From IMG/VR virus record IMGVR_UViG_3300042565_001021, positions 64,001 through 128,000 of that record: a DNA stretch of 64,000 nt; one strand, given 5' to 3'. The notes beneath the pieces are model-generated. The model was not told the origin of the DNA, searched no databases, and saw only the letters and a program-made list of their open reading frames with translations. Both the position numbers and the translations under genes were made by a program. This stretch comes from a virus. Every line of letters begins with the position of its first letter. Positions within the stretch are counted from its first letter, which is position 1. This document shows positions 621 to 49,880 of the stretch, in pieces.

Positions 621-865
621 TCTTTCACTCCGAAATGCTTACGCAATGCTTCAAGGTAGTTATCGGTGCCCATAACTTTATTACCGTTGTCAATGGCCGA
701 ATAAACGTTAGCGCATTCAATCACAATAAGCTCAGCGAACTGTTCGACCGCTGCGTCAAACTCGATAACGTCGTCGTCGTTAAGTTGATGACAGAACGCC
801 CTGTACCGGTCATACAGCTCGGCTAAGTCAGTTTTTACTGCTAGGTCAATCACTCGTTGGTTCAT
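617..865 (-). CDS. hypothetical protein, 'FAELIV.EC' small phage family
   Basis: VEQFAELIVIEC motif shared with 2848..3075 and 54387..54650. Confidence 0.7.
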   Translation of the reverse strand: MNQRVIDLAVKTDLAELYDRYRAFCHQLNDDDVIEFDAAVEQFAELIVIECANVYSAIDNGNKVMGTDNYLEALRKHFGVKE

Positions 866-1455
866 TCTTCTACTCCTTGTTCAATCCAGTGACAGTTAAA
901 CAGCCAGCGCACTTCATCAACCTTAGTCTGAGTCGAGCACGACTTTGCGATTGCACCCTTTACTAACTCGTAGGTGTTTTCCTTCTGATCAAACATCTTG
1001 TACAGGAAACGCTGATACTTTTCTTCCTGCTTCTGTACAAACTCAACCGCGTAGATCTTACGGTCAACATCGAGCTTTGCTTTTGCAGCAGCAATACGCA
1101 GATCAATTAAGGTCAGCGAAGTATCACGAACACCGTTCCAGAACTTGTTTTCAAATTCCTCAAAACGTGCCAAGTCCTTAGCGTCCAGGAAAGTACGCAC
1201 GTCGTCGGCCTGCTCGTTAGCGATGATCTCGATCACGTTCTTTTCGCGGCCGATCATGTCCTTGGCCTTGTGCTTGATCATATAGTCTTCGCTTTTACAC
1301 TTTACGCGATGGCCAGAATCCCATGCAACAACAAATCCCTCTTCGCCTATTAGGCCACGCACAAAGGAAATGAACTCCTGTGGATCTGCCACAGAGTTAT
1401 GCGATTTAACTGTAGGAATGTTAAACTCGCGAATCTTATCTTGAAGTATTGTCAT
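862..1455 (-). CDS. rnlA: RNA ligase 1 (T4 Rnl1-like), C-terminal half of split gene
   Basis: Motif IV EGFVV and motif V RVKCKS; NIPTVK continues directly from the GEYLPL end of 2260..2847. Confidence 0.85.
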   Translation of the reverse strand: MTILQDKIREFNIPTVKSHNSVADPQEFISFVRGLIGEEGFVVAWDSGHRVKCKSEDYMIKHKAKDMIGREKNVIEIIANEQADDVRTFLDAKDLARFEEFENKFWNGVRDTSLTLIDLRIAAAKAKLDVDRKIYAVEFVQKQEEKYQRFLYKMFDQKENTYELVKGAIAKSCSTQTKVDEVRWLFNCHWIEQGVEE

Positions 1456-1464
1456 AGTGTTACT

Positions 1465-1493
1465 ATTATACTACCAAAAAGAATAAATGTCAA
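1465..1493 (-). promoter_or_regulatory. sigma70 consensus promoter for Rnl1 C-half
   Basis: TTGACA-17 nt-TATAAT, ATG 9 nt downstream of the -10 box. Confidence 0.8.
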
Positions 1494-1507
1494 GAAATAT
1501 TTTATAG

Positions 1508-1596
1508 GATAAATAATAGTGCGGGCCGCGATACTTGTAATATCCGCCCGCTCTAGACGAACCAGGAGGCTCATATGTCCAGCAACGATATTTATC
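1508..1596 (+). promoter_or_regulatory. late promoter plus conserved structured leader of endonuclease gene (copy 1)
   Basis: TAAATA; stem GCGGGC-CGC-GATA/TATC-C-GCCCGC; AGGAGG SD. Confidence 0.75.
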
Positions 1597-2312
1597 AGCT
1601 GTATTACACATACCAACTAATTGATCCACGATCAAACTTACCATTTTACATTGGCTTCGCAAAAGATCCGCTGCGACCATATGATCATTTAGCGCAGTGT
1701 AAGAATTGGTTAGCAGGTAAGAAAGTTCCTCATCCAAACTATATCAAAATGGCCAAAATAAGAGACATTCTTAGTGAGGGTTACGAGTTCAAATTTGAAA
1801 TTATTTACAAAAGTTACGATCCAAATCAAGCATACGACAAAGAAACTGAGTTAATAACAAAGTATGGAAGACAAGACTTAAAGACAGGATTCTTATCTAA
1901 TATGAATGCTGGAGGCCGCGGCTGTCTAAATCCAAGTGACGAAGTAAGAAAGAAAATAAGTGACGGAAACTGCGGCACATTAGTTGAACGATGGGGCAAG
2001 GAACGAGCAGAGAAACAACTGGCGTTTCTTCGCAAACAACCCAAAGAAGTGATGGCAGAGCGCGGAATGAGAGGCGCTAAACACATCATTGACAACGGTT
2101 GGTCCAAAGAAACATTATCTAAAAGAAGTAAGTCAAGATTGCTAAACACGGTTAAACGCATCCAAAACCATTATCACCAGCCATACACCGAAGAGTTACG
2201 CATACAAGCAAGAAAAGACAAGGTTGCCTTTGTTGATAAGACAGCCTTGTCTAATTATGTCACAGAGGAAGATATTCGCCAGTTATCATATGACGGCAAG
2301 CCAACAGAGTAA
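1575..2312 (+). CDS. GIY-YIG family homing endonuclease
   Basis: YYTYQLIDPR...PFYIG, R..DH, AYDKETELI..YGR, LSNMNAGG; antisense insertion inside rnlA. Confidence 0.85.
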   Translation: MSSNDIYQLYYTYQLIDPRSNLPFYIGFAKDPLRPYDHLAQCKNWLAGKKVPHPNYIKMAKIRDILSEGYEFKFEIIYKSYDPNQAYDKETELITKYGRQDLKTGFLSNMNAGGRGCLNPSDEVRKKISDGNCGTLVERWGKERAEKQLAFLRKQPKEVMAERGMRGAKHIIDNGWSKETLSKRSKSRLLNTVKRIQNHYHQPYTEELRIQARKDKVAFVDKTALSNYVTEEDIRQLSYDGKPTE

Positions 2313-2847
2313 GCATGGGCTTATCGTAGTGAATCACAATCCGGTTATCAGGCGCTGTGTATTCAAATACCGGAGTGATTCCGTTTTCAATACACCAAGT
2401 CGAAAACGCCAGATACTCTGGATGAGCAGCAATAAACGGTTCCGCTTGAAGCGCAACATCAGTTAGTCCCATCTTCGTCCCAAAGCGAACCTTACCTTCA
2501 ACCATAAATGGTGACAGAAAAGAACCGTCAAGCTTGGTATAAACAGTATGCGGCTCAGAGAAATCAACATTCGCTAACTGCGTTTCTTCTTTCTCCATCA
2601 AGTTGAAAAATTTATGAAGAGGGCGACGAAGAATCTCACCAGTAGAAGAGCGGAAGATCATGCCGCGCAGTTCGCGCAGGATAGCGTGAGCTTCGTTTTC
2701 AACAGGAGGAAAGGTATCCGCCATCTGTACCACGTAGTTGATGACTGTGTAATCACCGTCCTTTACCGCGACAATGAACTCAGGCTTATCCGCAATCAGC
2801 GGCAATACCTGCGAAATGTTTGTGATCAACGGAAATTCATACTTCAT
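2260..2847 (-). CDS. rnlA: RNA ligase 1 (T4 Rnl1-like), N-terminal half of split gene
   Basis: ELRG, RPLHKFFN, motif I KLDGS, TPVFEY, DNRIVIHY. Confidence 0.88.
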   Translation of the reverse strand: MKYEFPLITNISQVLPLIADKPEFIVAVKDGDYTVINYVVQMADTFPPVENEAHAILRELRGMIFRSSTGEILRRPLHKFFNLMEKEETQLANVDFSEPHTVYTKLDGSFLSPFMVEGKVRFGTKMGLTDVALQAEPFIAAHPEYLAFSTWCIENGITPVFEYTAPDNRIVIHYDKPMLTLLACRHMITGEYLPL

Positions 2848-3075
2848 TTACTTTACTCCAAAGTGGTCTTTTATGTTTTTATCTACCCAGGCCAGCGTTC
2901 GTCCGACCTCGGTTCCTTCGTGCGGTGAAGGATTAGTGTACATCAAACATTCTTTCACAATCAGCTCTGCGAACTTTTCTGCGAACACACCCAATGATCC
3001 TTTACCGGACTCGTCGGCATGCTCGCTTGCGTATTGAAATGCTTCTGCTGCTAATGTGTCGATTCGATCGTTCAT
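2848..3075 (-). CDS. hypothetical protein, 'FAELIV.EC' family
   Basis: FAEKFAELIVKEC...HFGVK. Confidence 0.7.
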   Translation of the reverse strand: MNDRIDTLAAEAFQYASEHADESGKGSLGVFAEKFAELIVKECLMYTNPSPHEGTEVGRTLAWVDKNIKDHFGVK

Positions 3076-6629: not shown

Positions 6630-6913
6630 GTTTCTTGCCTTCCTTTAAATTTTAAGAAAAGTGCTGTTAAAAGAGGATCGTCTGACGGAAGATGAATCGT
6701 TATATACCGAGACCCAGTTGACTCTTGTACAAAGTCTCTTACGTCTTTATGAAACAATTTTACCAGCGTCTTTTCGTTACAGACCGCGAATACAAAATCT
6801 GCGCCCTGGGACGGATCGTCTAGTGCTGCCATTCTAATCCTTATGTGAGAAAGGTACTCGCTCAATGAGCAGTTTTCCCATGTACGTAGATTTATCTTAC
6901 GCTTCCGCGACAT
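6626..6913 (-). CDS. hypothetical protein
   Basis: 95 aa; ends LTALFLKF, possibly a distant 'LKW' relative. Confidence 0.5.
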   Translation of the reverse strand: MSRKRKINLRTWENCSLSEYLSHIRIRMAALDDPSQGADFVFAVCNEKTLVKLFHKDVRDFVQESTGSRYITIHLPSDDPLLTALFLKFKGRQET

Positions 6914-7355
6914 ATTCTTCGGTAGGTGTTACGATGATAATCTTGCTAAAGCCCTCAAGTCGCGTAGGGCGAACGTATTCCTTGCCGAGGTCCTTAGTAA
7001 CAGCAGCAGGGATCTCGAATGCCACAGCCACTACATCGTAGCCAGCAGCGATTAGCAGATCAATCTTTGGCCTACGAGTCGTTAGCGTTAAGTTAGCCCG
7101 ATCCCATATCAAATGCCGATACATGTCGATCATGCTCTTAACTCGATCGTTGAACCAATGGCTGGCTGCGTCGATGTTTGCCCTGATTACGTCGCCAAAG
7201 GTTTTCTCTTCTGCCTTTATTTCGCTCTCAACAAGAGCGTCGGGCGCAAGGTGTACAAACTTCTTCTGTAAAAGATAAGGAGCAGACCAGCTTAGCTGGG
7301 CTGTACACGGAATGCCTACTAACAGGTAGGCAACTGGTTTAATGGTAGTATCCAT
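6897..7355 (-). CDS. polynucleotide-kinase/AAA_33-like protein with degenerate P-loop
   Basis: YLLVGIPCTAQLSW, IWDRANL..TTR, PTRLEGF. Confidence 0.65.
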   Translation of the reverse strand: MDTTIKPVAYLLVGIPCTAQLSWSAPYLLQKKFVHLAPDALVESEIKAEEKTFGDVIRANIDAASHWFNDRVKSMIDMYRHLIWDRANLTLTTRRPKIDLLIAAGYDVVAVAFEIPAAVTKDLGKEYVRPTRLEGFSKIIIVTPTEEYVAEA

Positions 7356-7399
7356 ACTAACACTATACACTCTTTCGAGGAGTGTGTCAACCAGTATTT

Positions 7400-8518: not shown

Positions 8519-9355
8519 TTACAGGATGAAATGCGCGTCTGGATTCCAGCCAGTCATTTCGGTACCGTAGCTGCTTTGGTAGCCACGTGGGTTACACAGA
8601 ACGCGGGTGTAATCGCCAACCATGTAATCCATAACCGAATGTACGTGCCCGTGGATCCAATACTTGATGCGCGGGTTGTCTAGAATGAAATCATCCAACC
8701 GGCTGTGGTAGCCACCGTTCATCAGGAACTGGTCTCTATACCTGTTATCAACGCTCTGTCCAGTTGGCGCGTGGTGCGTAATCATAACCACCGTCTTGTC
8801 GATGTTGTGCGGGTTGTCCAGAATAATCTTGAAGTACTGGAGCGAGCGAACATGCTCGTTAATCGCATCGTGCGGCGTAAAACGAACATACTCGGTTGGC
8901 GTCCGAATCTTCTTAATCACCTCGAAGTCGTTCATACCGTGCTTAACGGCATGCACGGTAAGCGGATCACCACGGTTCATATCGGTCCAAAGTGTAGCAC
9001 CGACGAACAGCACGTTGTCCAGTTCGAAGCAATCATTTTCCATGATGCGGAAATTGTCCGGCAGCTCCTTGCGCATACGAGCATGGGTCTTTTCAAACGC
9101 CATGCGGTAATGCTCGTGGTTGCCAGCAATCATAAGGACATGCTGATACTTCTTCTCGCACTCCTCAATGAAGAATTGGTTGATCCGGCCCTTGTTGCTG
9201 ATCTTAATTCCGGTGCCGTGCTGATCGGGCTCGTACTTCTTCATCTCCTTTGCTTCGCAAGTATCGCCTGCAAGGATAAGAATGTCGCCGCCAGGCAGCG
9301 TTGGGTTAGTCTTCCCAACGTCCAAATGTAGATCTGAGCAATAATTGATTTTCAT
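8519..9355 (-). CDS. calcineurin-like metallophosphoesterase
   Basis: SDLH, AGD, GNHE, THHAP, HGHVH, NPRGY. Confidence 0.9.
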   Translation of the reverse strand: MKINYCSDLHLDVGKTNPTLPGGDILILAGDTCEAKEMKKYEPDQHGTGIKISNKGRINQFFIEECEKKYQHVLMIAGNHEHYRMAFEKTHARMRKELPDNFRIMENDCFELDNVLFVGATLWTDMNRGDPLTVHAVKHGMNDFEVIKKIRTPTEYVRFTPHDAINEHVRSLQYFKIILDNPHNIDKTVVMITHHAPTGQSVDNRYRDQFLMNGGYHSRLDDFILDNPRIKYWIHGHVHSVMDYMVGDYTRVLCNPRGYQSSYGTEMTGWNPDAHFIL

Positions 9356-9393
9356 AGCCTTAATTATACTATCTTTTTTGGTTTTTGTCAACC

Positions 9394-30007: not shown

Positions 30008-30595
30008 TTAGCGTCGAGTAATGATTTCGTCCACTAAGCCAAAGTCCAGGGCTTCTTGTGCGGACATGAAATTATCACGCTCCATGGCAGCAGCAAATTC
30101 GTCAAACGTCTTGCCTTTGCTATTGTGATCAACGTAGATCTGCGTAAGAACCTTCTTCATTTTGAGGATTTCTTCGACCTGAATAAGCATGTCCGTTGCT
30201 TGACCACGTGCACCACCGCTAGGTTGGTGAATCATGTGTCGTGCATACGGGAGGATCATGCGCTTACCTTTCGCGCCTGCTTGAGCAAGCAACGAACCCA
30301 TGCTACAGGCCTGACCCATTACGATAGTGCGAACGTCACACTTTACGAATTGCATGGTATCGTAGATGGCCATACCTGCCGTTACGATGCCGCCCGGGGA
30401 GTTGATGTAAAAGATAATCTCTTTGTCTGCATCTTCTGCTTCAAGGAACAACATTTGCGCTACGACTACGCTAGACGACACCTCGTTTACGTCATCGTGA
30501 AGCATAACGATACGGTCTTTAAGCAAGCGACTGTAGATATCGTAGCTACGTTCGCCTTTAGCGGTTTGCTCGACTACCATTGGAATAAGGGACAC
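30008..30595 (-). CDS. clpP: ATP-dependent Clp protease proteolytic subunit
   Basis: [35 protein letters not shown]. Confidence 0.95.
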
Positions 30596-30662
30596 GGGTT
30601 ACCTTTCAAATTGTTAAGTTATATACTAACATAACTGAATAGCAAAGGTCAATCTGTTTGGC

Positions 30663-30748
30663 ATAAATAAAAGTGCAGTTCGCGATGTTGAAGCATCCAA
30701 CTGCCCTAGACTAACCAGGAGGCTATATGTCCAGCAATAATACTTATT
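30663..30748 (+). promoter_or_regulatory. late promoter plus conserved structured leader (copy 2)
   Basis: TAAATA; GCAGTT-CGC-GATG/CATC-C-AACTGC; AGGAGG. Confidence 0.75.
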
Positions 30749-31275
30749 ACGTTTACGCATATCTGCGCAATAAAGACTCAAAAACTGCTAAAGCAGGAAC
30801 ACCTTATTATATTGGCAAAGGATCAGGACGACGCGCCTGGGTAACCCATAAACATAAGACCCCGGTGCCGAAAGATAAAACGTTTATTGTTCTACTTGAA
30901 CAGAATTTAACTGAAGTCGGAGCATTAGCCTTAGAGAGGAGAATGATTGCTTGGCATGGAAGAAAAGATTTAGGAACAGGCATTCTATTAAATAGAACAG
31001 ACGGAGGAGACGGTTGTAGCGGAGTTATTATGTCTGAATTAACTAAAGAAAAACGTAATGCTGCGCAAAGAGGAAAGAAGTTGTCAGAAGAACATAAGAG
31101 AAAAATATCTGTCGGTTCAAAATCAAGACCGCCTATATCCGAAGAAACGAGAGAAAAATTTAGGCTACGAAACAAAAACCGGGCGCCGATGACAGCTGAA
31201 GAGAGGGTAAAATTATCAATTGCAGTAACGCAGTCATGGGCAAGAAGAAAATTACTTAAATCTTCTGCCGCTTAA
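30727..31275 (+). CDS. GIY-YIG homing endonuclease with NUMOD3-like repeats
   Basis: YYVYAYLR...PYYIGKG, LLNRTDGGDG, LSEEHKRKIS. Confidence 0.85.
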   Translation: MSSNNTYYVYAYLRNKDSKTAKAGTPYYIGKGSGRRAWVTHKHKTPVPKDKTFIVLLEQNLTEVGALALERRMIAWHGRKDLGTGILLNRTDGGDGCSGVIMSELTKEKRNAAQRGKKLSEEHKRKISVGSKSRPPISEETREKFRLRNKNRAPMTAEERVKLSIAVTQSWARRKLLKSSAA

Positions 31276-40533: not shown

Positions 40534-40754
40534 TTAACCCACCTCAGAGCGAACAGAACAGCGTCTGATTCTTTTTCAAAGGAAAACGTAAGTGGCCCGT
40601 ATCCTGTGTCTTCGTCTTCATGGGTGCTAGTCATTCGTCCGGTTATGTTCTTTGCTACCCAGCAAGCAGACCCTTGCATAACGCATTCGGTCCAGTTGTC
40701 AACAATGACGTTATACGGATACGGTGCCCATGGCAATTTTCTGTTCACAGCCAT
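40530..40754 (-). CDS. 'L(K/R)W'-family small protein
   Basis: FSFEKESDAVLFALRW. Confidence 0.75.
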   Translation of the reverse strand: MAVNRKLPWAPYPYNVIVDNWTECVMQGSACWVAKNITGRMTSTHEDEDTGYGPLTFSFEKESDAVLFALRWVK

Positions 40755-41281
40755 TTTGCGAACAGCTCCTTAAATTCTTCTTCGGTTAGGTCACCTACGT
40801 CCTTGCCTTCCGGCAGGAACACGCATTCAGCACCGTACTTAGCAAGCTTCTTACCTGCTGCGTCGCCCTGAACACAAGCTACCTTCCGCTGCGGCATCCC
40901 CATCAGCCAACCAGTTAGATGCTTTGGGTTGTTGCCCATTACAGCAACAGCAGGCAGACCGTGCCAGTGTAGCCGAGCAGCGTCAAACACGCCTTCGGTC
41001 AGGAACAGAAACTTGTCCGTCCAGCGTACAGTTTCGAGACCCCACACAGCCAGGTGAGCGTCTTTGCTTGCGCAAGGCTTGGTTACCCAGCTAAAGTATT
41101 TCTGTAGCTTTGGGTCGCCTACTTCCTTCTTAGGCTGTGACGGAGAATACGTCTGAAACCCAACTGCCTGCCCAGATAAATTCCATAACATCACAGTCAT
41201 CATTTTATCTGTCACCGTAAGGCTACTATACCGCTGCGGGTCAAAATAACGACTACGTAGATGAGTTAGCATTTTATCCAT
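40745..41281 (-). CDS. small Toprim-domain (primase-like) protein
   Basis: LWNLSGQAVGFQ, LTEGVFDA, GDAAG, KDVGD. Confidence 0.75.
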   Translation of the reverse strand: MDKMLTHLRSRYFDPQRYSSLTVTDKMMTVMLWNLSGQAVGFQTYSPSQPKKEVGDPKLQKYFSWVTKPCASKDAHLAVWGLETVRWTDKFLFLTEGVFDAARLHWHGLPAVAVMGNNPKHLTGWLMGMPQRKVACVQGDAAGKKLAKYGAECVFLPEGKDVGDLTEEEFKELFAKWL

Positions 41282-41325
41282 GTTTGTATTATACATGAAA
41301 ATTTACTAAATGTCAACCAAAAAAG

Positions 41326-41403
41326 ATAAATAAGTGTGGACCACGGAGTTCGCCGCTCCCGCCCACTCTAACGCTATAAGGAGCAATCAGCATGTATATT
41401 TAT
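41326..41403 (+). promoter_or_regulatory. late promoter plus conserved structured leader (copy 3)
   Basis: TAAATA; GTGGAC-CAC-GGAG/CTCC-C-GCCCAC; AAGGAG. Confidence 0.7.
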
Positions 41404-42009
41404 ACTTCAGAACAAGTAAGACCATATGTTTATATGGGAATTCATAAAGTAACCGGTGAGATTTACATAGGTTATCGTGAAGCAAACTCAACTCCGTCAC
41501 ACCTTGATATCTTCGAATATCGGACTTCGTCTAAGATAGTTAAACCGAAGTTTGATGATTATACCTGGTATATAGTAGCAGAGTTCATAACAGGTGATGC
41601 GGCTTATGACTTTGAACAACAATTGATATTTGAAAATTGGGATAGTCCTCTTCTGTTAAACAGAAGCTGTCAATTTGGTCATCAGAAAAGATTTAAGTGT
41701 TCAAATAAAGGAAGAAAACAATCAGACAGTCATATCGCAAAGCTGACTGAGATTCGTAAAAATAGGACACTTCCGGCTGATTTCGGCGCAAAGGTCTCGG
41801 CTGGTCTCAAAGGAAAACCGAAATCCGAAGAGCATAAGATAAAAACAGGTAATGCCTTTCGAGGGATCCCTCGAACTGAAGAAACTAAGCAAAAAATTAA
41901 AGAGAAAAGAGCTCTTCAGGTAATAACACATGAATCAAGAATTAAAGCCGCAGCGACCCGAGCAAGAAACTTAGCATTGAAAAGTCAACCAAAAGAAATG
42001 GGCCCATAA
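41392..42009 (+). CDS. GIY-YIG (Seg-like) homing endonuclease with NUMOD3-like repeats
   Basis: PYVY...TGEIYIGYR, Y.TSS, AYDFEQ, LLN, KSEEHK. Confidence 0.82.
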   Translation: MYIYTSEQVRPYVYMGIHKVTGEIYIGYREANSTPSHLDIFEYRTSSKIVKPKFDDYTWYIVAEFITGDAAYDFEQQLIFENWDSPLLLNRSCQFGHQKRFKCSNKGRKQSDSHIAKLTEIRKNRTLPADFGAKVSAGLKGKPKSEEHKIKTGNAFRGIPRTEETKQKIKEKRALQVITHESRIKAAATRARNLALKSQPKEMGP

Positions 42010-49229: not shown

Positions 49230-49248
49230 AAGTAATGCTCCAAAAAAG

Positions 49249-49334
49249 ATAAATAATAGTGCAGTTCGCGATACGCAAATATCCAACTGCCTTAGTCATC
49301 CTTGGGAGGATATATGACCAACACTACTATTTAT
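49249..49334 (+). promoter_or_regulatory. late promoter plus conserved structured leader (copy 4)
   Basis: TAAATA; GCAGTT-CGC-GATA/TATC-C-AACTGC; GGAGG. Confidence 0.75.
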
Positions 49335-49880
49335 GATAACACTACTGCCACAAAAACACAAGAGTTTAAGCCAACTTACCTATACATAAAACAGCATAAT
49401 GTTACCGGATTGAAGTATTTCGGTAAAACCATTAGTAGCGATCCTGTTAAATATAAAGGTTCTGGGTTAATGTGGAAAAGACACCTTAAGAAACACGGAA
49501 ATAACGTTACAACTACTTGGTTGAGGTTGTTTACTGATCAAAAAGAGTTAACTGAATTTGCTCTCGACTTTTCAAAAGAAAATAACATTATCGAATCCAA
49601 GGAATGGGCAAACTTATTATTTGAAGATGGAGTTGCCGGCGGGTTTGGTGGTCATACTATTAAAGGTAGAAAGTTAGGTCCTATGTCTGAAGAACATAAA
49701 AGAGCACTATCTATTGCTAATCGTGGAAAAGGTCGCCCACCTATTTCAGAAGAAACCAGAGTTAAAATGTCAGCAGCAAGAAAAGGGAAGCCGGCTGCAA
49801 ATGCCGGAAAGAAGCACTCCGAAGAAGCCAGGCGCAAAATATCTGAGGCCAGAAAAAGATACCTTAGTAAGGTCTTATAA
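49314..49880 (+). CDS. GIY-YIG (Seg-like) homing endonuclease with NUMOD3-like repeats
   Basis: YLYIKQH..TGLKYFGKT, YKGSG, WANL..E.G, HSEEARRKIS. Confidence 0.85.
   Translation: MTNTTIYDNTTATKTQEFKPTYLYIKQHNVTGLKYFGKTISSDPVKYKGSGLMWKRHLKKHGNNVTTTWLRLFTDQKELTEFALDFSKENNIIESKEWANLLFEDGVAGGFGGHTIKGRKLGPMSEEHKRALSIANRGKGRPPISEETRVKMSAARKGKPAANAGKKHSEEARRKISEARKRYLSKVL

Follow-up and report, generated by a model that had tools for sequence, protein, structure and literature searches.

Organization of the interrupted rnlA locus

We analyzed a 64,000-nucleotide stretch of viral DNA (positions 64,001 to 128,000 of the IMG/VR virus record IMGVR_UViG_3300042565_001021; hereafter the window) from an uncultured T4-like phage, in which rnlA, the gene for RNA ligase 1 (Rnl1), is represented by two separate minus-strand open reading frames (ORFs) together with a plus-strand endonuclease ORF (862-2847). 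The source record is 155 kb long, with a CheckV completeness of ~44%, and nearly all the long ORFs of the window lie on the minus strand. The N-terminal part of the ligase (N-half; 2260..2847, minus strand; 195 amino acids (aa)) comprises most of the nucleotidyltransferase domain, including motif I (K105 in KLDGS), R61, K79/F80, K125 and motif III (FEYTAP), and ends in ...ITGEYLPL followed by a TGA stop codon. It lies directly 3' of an upstream ORF and has a GGAG Shine-Dalgarno (SD) sequence 9 nucleotides (nt) ahead of its ATG. The C-terminal part (C-half; 862..1455, minus strand; 197 aa) begins with MTILQDKIREFNIPTVK (MTILQDKIREF…) and supplies a helix, motif IV (E39-G40 in EGFVV), motif V (K52 and K54 in VKCKS) and the all-helical C-terminal domain specific to Rnl1; its stop codon overlaps the ATG of the next gene (ATGA).

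Interposed between these halves is an insert of ~805 nt (1456..2262) that is missing from intact homologues. Its limits were drawn from protein colinearity, with native sequence running to the codon for Leu195 and resuming about 1-3 codons past the new ATG of the C-half. The insert is occupied by a free-standing gene for a GIY-YIG homing endonuclease (1575..2312, plus strand; 245 aa), antisense to rnlA, which overlaps the 3' end of the N-half by 53 nt (2260-2312), and the last 16 codons of the endonuclease are therefore antisense rnlA sequence. Two further elements lie between the endonuclease gene and the C-half: a sigma-70-type promoter facing the C-half (1465..1493, minus strand) and a leader preceding the endonuclease (1509..1574, plus strand), which consists of the motif ATAAATAATAGTG (1509-1521), a hairpin of the form GCGGGC...GCCCGC (1521-1551) and the sequence AGGAGG (1564-1569).

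Sequence features of the two halves and of the endonuclease

Profile searches place both halves in the same ligase family: the N-half matches PF09511 (RNA_lig_T4_1; E 1.8e-20, 74 bits against a cut-off of 28.3) and positions 30-194 of the 377 positions of phrog_562, and the C-half matches PF20819 (T4_Rnl1_C; 31.4 bits, cut-off 27) and positions 208-363 of the same phrog. In alignments with T4 Rnl1, KLDGS corresponds to the segment beginning with the nucleotidyltransferase lysine (K99-EDGS), FEYTAP to FEFVAP (E159), EGFVV to E227/G228 and VKCKS to K240/K242. We take the essential residues of T4 Rnl1, as defined by mutagenesis in the Shuman laboratory, to be R54, K75, F77, K99, G102, K119, E159, E227, G228, K240 and K242; each of these has a counterpart in the window that is invariant, or almost invariant, across the alignments, with K105, D107, G108 and S109 invariant in that of the N-half and E39, G40, K52 and K54 invariant in that of the C-half. 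Thus, motifs I and III reside on the first chain, and motifs IV and V along with the helical C-domain on the second. Between them the halves carry the features of a T4 RnlA-type Rnl1, namely the domain with motif I, motifs III, IV and V, and the C-domain, from which ligation activity is predicted.

The middle ORF matches phrog_314, annotated as 'homing endonuclease' (E 2.4e-12). By itself it scores below the Pfam cut-off (24.8 vs 27); a profile of this ORF with three relatives matches a solved GIY-YIG protein, 9u75_A (E 1e-14), and Y10, Y11, Y13, Y25, G27, R34, E90 and N109 are invariant among the four sequences. A megablast search of GenBank phages with the region returned no match; the nearest cultured relatives, Caulobacter phage Cr30 and Synechococcus phage B23, have an intact rnlA with at most 49% aa identity.

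Position of the break

When aligned to Cr30, B23 and intact uncultured relatives, the end of the N-half adjoins the start of the C-half exactly, with 1-3 residues extra and 0 lost at the junction, and the combined length of the halves (392 aa) falls within that of the intact homologues (380-409 aa). In the alignment with T4 Rnl1 (PDB 2C5U), residue 193 of the N-half corresponds to T4 residue 191 and residue 26 of the C-half to T4 residue 215; these flanking points therefore place the break at about residue 192-195 of the T4 enzyme. The chain is thus interrupted within its adenylyltransferase domain, at a point flanked by motifs IIIa and IV. The AlphaFold2 model computed for the intact ligase of the related locus L005 (pLDDT, the predicted local distance difference test score, 92.6), whose best PDB matches are the T4 Rnl1 structures 5TT6, 2C5U and 9DO4, is predicted to be all-helical beyond residue 251, and in this model the break would map to a loop between a β-hairpin (178-186/192) and a helix (195-205).

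An original prediction, made from the letters of the window and a list of their ORFs, had described an N-half with motif I KLDGS that stops at GEYLPL, a C-half that resumes with motifs IV (EGFV) and V (KCK), and an opposite-strand GIY-YIG ORF filling the insert. The ORF at 2260..2847, the alignment with T4 Rnl1 and the matches to phrog_314 and 9u75_A, respectively, bear out these points, and the proposed alignment of the halves with intact Rnl1 homologues shows them to be colinear, with the 1-3 extra residues noted above. The same prediction had reported a perfect TTGACA-17-TATAAT promoter 9 nt before the new ATG and no SD sequence, which direct reading of the sequence confirms.

Expression signals of the C-half and the endonuclease

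The promoter facing the C-half consists of a -35 element TTGACA (1493..1488), a 17-nt spacer and a -10 element TATAAT (1470..1465), a 12/12 match to the consensus of which ~0.01 are expected per 64 kb. The first 12 kb of the window contain four matches of at least 11/12, all of them on the gene strand, and these are probably the early promoters of this phage. Only 9 nt (AGTAACACT) separate the -10 element from the ATG of the C-half at 1455, and there is no purine-rich SD sequence upstream of this start. Given that the usual spacing puts transcription initiation ~3 nt upstream of the AUG, the predicted mRNA of the C-half would be nearly leaderless.

On the opposite strand, the leader of the endonuclease gene begins 15 bases from the -35 element, and its AGGAGG lies 5 nt before the ATG. 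The core of the ATAAATAATAGTG motif resembles the T4 late promoter TATAAATA, and this motif is enriched in the window (9 matches vs 1.96 expected). Comparison of seven cassettes showed that 8 of the 10 pairs of the leader hairpin covary, with compensatory changes; the folding energy alone is not significant (z -1.1), and it is hence the covariation that supports the hairpin. The same leader precedes three further antisense GIY-YIG genes in the window.

Absence of elements that could rejoin the halves

Given that endonuclease genes are often found within group I introns or between split inteins (PMC2677866, PMC3984707), and that T4 gene 60 exemplifies translational bypassing, we considered whether a single product is restored from the two halves by RNA splicing, by protein trans-splicing (a split-intein 'fractured gene') or by bypassing. 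Scanning the two strands with Rfam at E values as high as 10 recovered no group I or group II intron or other ribozyme, the only two matches being sub-threshold chance matches to Thr_leader and DUF805b, and an intron was accordingly rejected as an explanation of the insert; the endonuclease is, moreover, encoded on the strand opposite rnlA. Split inteins are excluded because the 195 + 197 aa of the halves already equal the intact length, leaving no room for intein halves, and because no Hint/intein domain was found with Pfam. The ~800-nt gap far exceeds known bypassing. Furthermore, in all eight lineages in which the split was found (see below), a separate promoter and ATG serve the C-half. 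Rejoining at either the RNA or the protein level is hence hardly credible. A search of the 155-kb record revealed no second copy of rnlA that could supply an uninterrupted product.

Recurrence of the split across phage lineages

To place the window in context, relatives were collected by protein look-ups and IMG/VR scans, and 80 related IMG/VR loci (designated L with a number) were fetched. In most of these rnlA is uninterrupted, with 33 distinct full-length ORFs confirmed to be open. The same split architecture, with an N-half of ~195-209 aa, an antisense endonuclease and a C-half of ~186-201 aa, recurs in eight lineages from independent ENA, JGI and IMG/VR assemblies. The interrupting gene codes for a GIY-YIG endonuclease in four of these (the window, L013/L014, L006 and L031) and for an HNH endonuclease in the other four (L009/L010/L011, L020/L021, L022 and L050). 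In 8/8 lineages the break falls in the same loop of ~5 residues after GEY, and in every one the endonuclease ORF overlaps the 3' end of the N-half, by 11-63 nt. The two halves are always found together, and all 16 half-ORFs of the eight lineages are open and full length.

A sigma-70-like promoter is likewise present upstream of the C-half at all eight loci. The window and L013 share TTGACA-17-TATAAT with 9 nt from the -10 element to the ATG and no SD sequence. An SD sequence is present in L009 (TTGACA-17-TATAAT; 29 nt from -10 to ATG), L020 (TTGACA-16-TATTAT; 21 nt), L022 (TTGACT-16-TATTAT; 18 nt) and L050 (TTGACA-17-TATACT; 27 nt), and L006 and L031 have weaker promoter sites that lie within the endonuclease gene, 56 nt from -10 to ATG.

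One of these loci, L006 (IMGVR_UViG_3300045971_000356), has rnlA interrupted twice, with a second antisense GIY-YIG gene (2065..2631) near the 5' end of rnlA (1967-2760). Ahead of this gene, 33 aa of the original N-terminus survive as a dead remnant (MKYQFPHIHNLDQ...GRH*), and past the gene are a promoter (TTGACT-17-TATAAT) and, after 7 nt, an ATG that opens a recoded copy of the ~31 N-terminal codons with 55% DNA identity. The 5' cassette thus appears to bring its own copy of the rnlA 5' end. A few other relatives show breaks of another kind, namely an in-frame stop in the rnlA of L043 (1321-2538; stop at 1705-1707) and a frameshift near codon 120 in that of L080/L081 (2804-4058), which may represent pseudogenes, recoding or assembly errors.

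Evolution of the split and selection on the two halves

When 43 ligases were placed in a maximum-likelihood tree, every split form grouped within a single well-supported clade of 22 members, where intact forms are interspersed among them. The distribution of the split state on this tree requires 4 changes (gains or losses), at least 3 of which are forced by well-supported branches. The endonucleases of L006 and L031 are 58% identical, while the rnlA genes that host them belong to different sub-clades, each among intact sisters, a pattern that homing into new alleles would produce.

Comparison of the window with its split relative L013 provides a closer view of the cassette. DNA identity is 79-81% over the N-half along with two-fifths of the endonuclease gene at its 3' end (window 2160-2860 vs L013:2509-3209) and 73% over the promoters and the C-half; between these regions the segment encoding the nuclease domain (window 1595-1956) cannot be aligned. 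The shared frame of the cassette and the identical junction peptides indicate that the common ancestor of the window and L013 was already split. The nuclease domain of L013 is 65% identical to that of the upstream endonuclease of L006, which suggests replacement of the nuclease head within a fixed cassette. For the GIY-YIG and HNH endonucleases at the rnlA site, a comparison for a shared DNA-binding domain with hhalign gave a probability of 0.5% (E 0.11); a blastp match between those of L022 and L031 lies partly in the tail, where similarity is forced because the tail is antisense to the conserved rnlA.

These data bear on the possibility that the split killed the ligase, and that the ORFs are decaying remnants of a dispensable gene needed only against particular host anticodon nucleases. 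Dispensability has some basis, in that rnlA is non-essential in T4 on most hosts; the in-frame stop or frameshift in L043 and L080/L081 and the lack of an SD sequence before the C-half in the window point the same way. However, between the window and L013 the ratio of nonsynonymous to synonymous substitution rates (dN/dS) is 0.066 for the N-half (dS 1.08) and 0.117 for the C-half (dS 2.2, which is near saturation). Among the other split pairs synonymous sites are saturated (proportion of synonymous differences, pS, at least 0.7), the proportion of nonsynonymous differences (pN) is 0.2-0.5 and aa identity 35-69%, and the frames have nonetheless stayed open in the full set of 16 half-ORFs. The catalytic residues are invariant, and the promoter of the C-half is maintained in 8/8 lineages. 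Moreover, the terminal branches of the split forms show no acceleration of rate: that of L006 (0.50) and that of L031 (0.15) compare with 0.29-0.57 and 0.14-0.54, respectively, for their intact sisters, and there is hence no sign of relaxed constraint. Decay of a dead gene is therefore quite improbable as an account of these ORFs. The original prediction had held that rnlA is split without splicing and had named a group I intron fold and relaxed selection on either half among the observations that would count against it; neither an intron on either strand nor such relaxation was seen.

A proposed two-chain RNA ligase generated by a mobile endonuclease cassette

Since both ORFs and their catalytic residues have been kept in eight split lineages, and since the split falls in a loop, we propose that rnlA of this phage is an endonuclease-split Rnl1 of the 'genes-in-pieces' type that would be functional as two chains associating in trans, a reading to which we assign a probability of roughly 0.7. 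The halves could instead have been kept for separate, non-ligase functions, for example with the C-half retaining a tRNA-binding role of the C-domain or a role in tail-fibre attachment such as that reported for T4 gp63, whose second activity is independent of ligation (PMC3322345); separate promoters would also make separate regulation of the halves possible. Against this, the residues that serve only adenylylation or ligation (K105, E162, E39/G40 and K52/K54) are invariant in all split lineages, motifs IV and V are useless without the motif I borne by the other chain, and the halves always co-occur, all of which makes such a division of functions unlikely. Thus, the three alternatives are disfavoured by the data on selection, by ligase-only residues having been retained in each of the two chains and by the lack of splicing elements.

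Certain observations weigh against a working two-chain ligase. The break falls within a single catalytic domain and not between domains, and the junction has only 1-3 extra residues, in place of the insert-derived tails that act as interaction modules in the NrdA of Aeromonas phage Aeh1. The absence of an SD sequence before the C-half means that its expression would depend on the predicted leaderless initiation. That rnlA is broken in other ways in a few relatives (L043 and L080/L081) implies that the gene can be lost, and, given that the record is ~44% complete, an intact rnlA paralogue may exist elsewhere in the genome.

Under the proposed two-chain arrangement, a mobile homing-endonuclease cassette, oriented antisense to rnlA, would have entered the gene at a position encoding a surface loop of the Rnl1 nucleotidyltransferase domain. 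At one edge, such a cassette would terminate the N-half with a stop codon; it would also carry an endonuclease gene equipped with a late-type promoter, a 5' hairpin and an SD sequence and, back-to-back with this unit, an outward-facing consensus sigma-70 promoter followed almost immediately by a new ATG. Expression of the N-half would then depend on the upstream early operon, and the cassette promoter would give rise to a leaderless or near-leaderless mRNA for the C-half. The two chains could associate via native intradomain contacts, with two β-strands of the C-half, those bearing motifs IV and V, joining the sheet built by the N-half, and thereby restore an active ligase. The endonuclease, expressed late, would cut the uninterrupted rnlA of co-infecting relatives, and the cassette could spread by recombinational repair.

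More tentatively, and with somewhat less than even odds, the endonucleases of this phage group might constitute a pre-packaged gene-splitting module, with a stop at its edge, an antisense endonuclease under a late promoter with a covarying hairpin, and an outward early promoter placed 6-9 nt before an ATG, giving a leaderless mRNA. Such a module would land in surface loops and leave behind a working two-chain enzyme, and would have done so repeatedly (at two sites in rnlA and perhaps in a primase gene described below), with GIY-YIG and HNH heads being swapped at the rnlA site.

Other antisense endonuclease genes and neighbours of rnlA

Elsewhere in the window, the region 40745-42009 holds a possible second split gene. 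Here an antisense GIY-YIG gene (41392..42009, plus strand; phrog_314, E 5e-14) has the same leader of ATAAATA, hairpin and SD sequence, and back-to-back with it is a 12/12 TTGACA-17-TATAAT promoter (41316..41288, minus strand) whose -10 element ends 6 nt before an ATG (41281..41279). Translation from this ATG would have a truly leaderless start. The ORF that it opens matches only positions 141-334 of the 435 of the DNA primase phrog_849, and a search of the 155-kb record did not recover an N-terminal primase portion. Two further antisense GIY-YIG cassettes (30596-31275 and 49235-49880) contain plus-strand genes (30727..31275 and 49302..49880, respectively) that lie between minus-strand genes and are preceded by the conserved leader. 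At the first of these a TTGACC-18-TAGTAT promoter with an extended -10 element faces a ClpP-like minus-strand ORF (30008..30595). The combination of antisense orientation with an outward promoter looks like a rule for the endonuclease genes of this phage.

At a distance of 4-7 kb from rnlA are two genes with consensus promoters upstream: a 157-aa ORF with an AAA_33 P-loop domain (6897-7370; 27.9 bits; phrog_2071, 'ATPase') and a 290-aa metallophosphoesterase (8519-9391; phrog_1649, E 6e-55). We speculate that these could be RNA end-healing partners of the ligase, acting as kinase and phosphatase, respectively. The record, at its ~44% completeness, contains only generic AAA_33 matches and no T4-type Pnkp or Rnl2-type ligase.

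Implications

If the above proposal holds, Rnl1 would join the few enzymes, namely NrdA, topoisomerase and DNA polymerase, that are known to withstand being fragmented by selfish endonucleases. The split arrangement is not a one-off: among environmental T4-like phages it appears to be widespread, to spread horizontally and to be maintained by selection. An active pair would mark a naturally occurring site for designing split versions of Rnl1, which is in wide laboratory use, and would be an example of assembly resting on native intradomain contacts only. Furthermore, the anatomy of the cassette, with its antisense endonuclease, outward consensus promoter and leaderless start, suggests how mobile endonucleases might soften the harm of landing in a gene. 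For annotation, it follows that phage metagenome ORFs called as 'RNA ligase' at half the usual length are not necessarily pseudogenes.

Comparison with known systems

We found no paper describing a split rnlA in a literature search outside of which most subscription journals lay. The family, fold, both Pfam domains and all nucleotidyltransferase motifs are those of T4 RNA ligase 1 (gp63, RnlA; PDB 2C5U, 5TT6 and 9DO4), which is a single chain of 374 aa, whereas that of the window phage is cut at about residue 192-195. The arrangement also recalls the 'fractured genes' (Dassa et al. 2009, PMC2677866), in which a host gene is in two pieces with an endonuclease gene between them; however, rnlA lacks intein halves and no protein trans-splicing is thus possible. 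Endonuclease-associated splits that yield reassembling subunits are likewise seen in T4 gene 39/60 (mobA) and gene 43A/43B of Aeromonas phage 25, with a seg-like gene (PMC2988022). These concern other genes, and in both the endonuclease is oriented like its neighbours, in contrast to the antisense orientation at rnlA; in T4, segD is the only antisense endonuclease gene (PMC2988022).

The closest parallel is the 'genes-in-pieces' ribonucleotide reductase of Aeromonas phage Aeh1, nrdA-a/mobE/nrdA-b (Friedrich et al. 2007, cited in PMC2988022; Crona et al. 2011, PMC3045599), a precedent that the original prediction had correctly cited. In both cases a free-standing endonuclease gene lies inside a conserved enzyme gene of a T4-like phage, two polypeptides are encoded with no intron or intein, and the active-site residues are spread over both chains. 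The systems differ in their target, which is Rnl1 and not NrdA in the window phage, and in that its endonuclease is antisense and its cassette supplies a consensus early promoter along with a predicted leaderless or near-leaderless start for the 3' half. While the insert-derived tails are essential for assembly in Aeh1, the rnlA junction has just its few extra residues, and, unlike in Aeh1, the rnlA site hosts a GIY-YIG nuclease in some lineages and an HNH nuclease in others. The activity of the Aeh1 pair has been demonstrated, and that of the rnlA pair is predicted.

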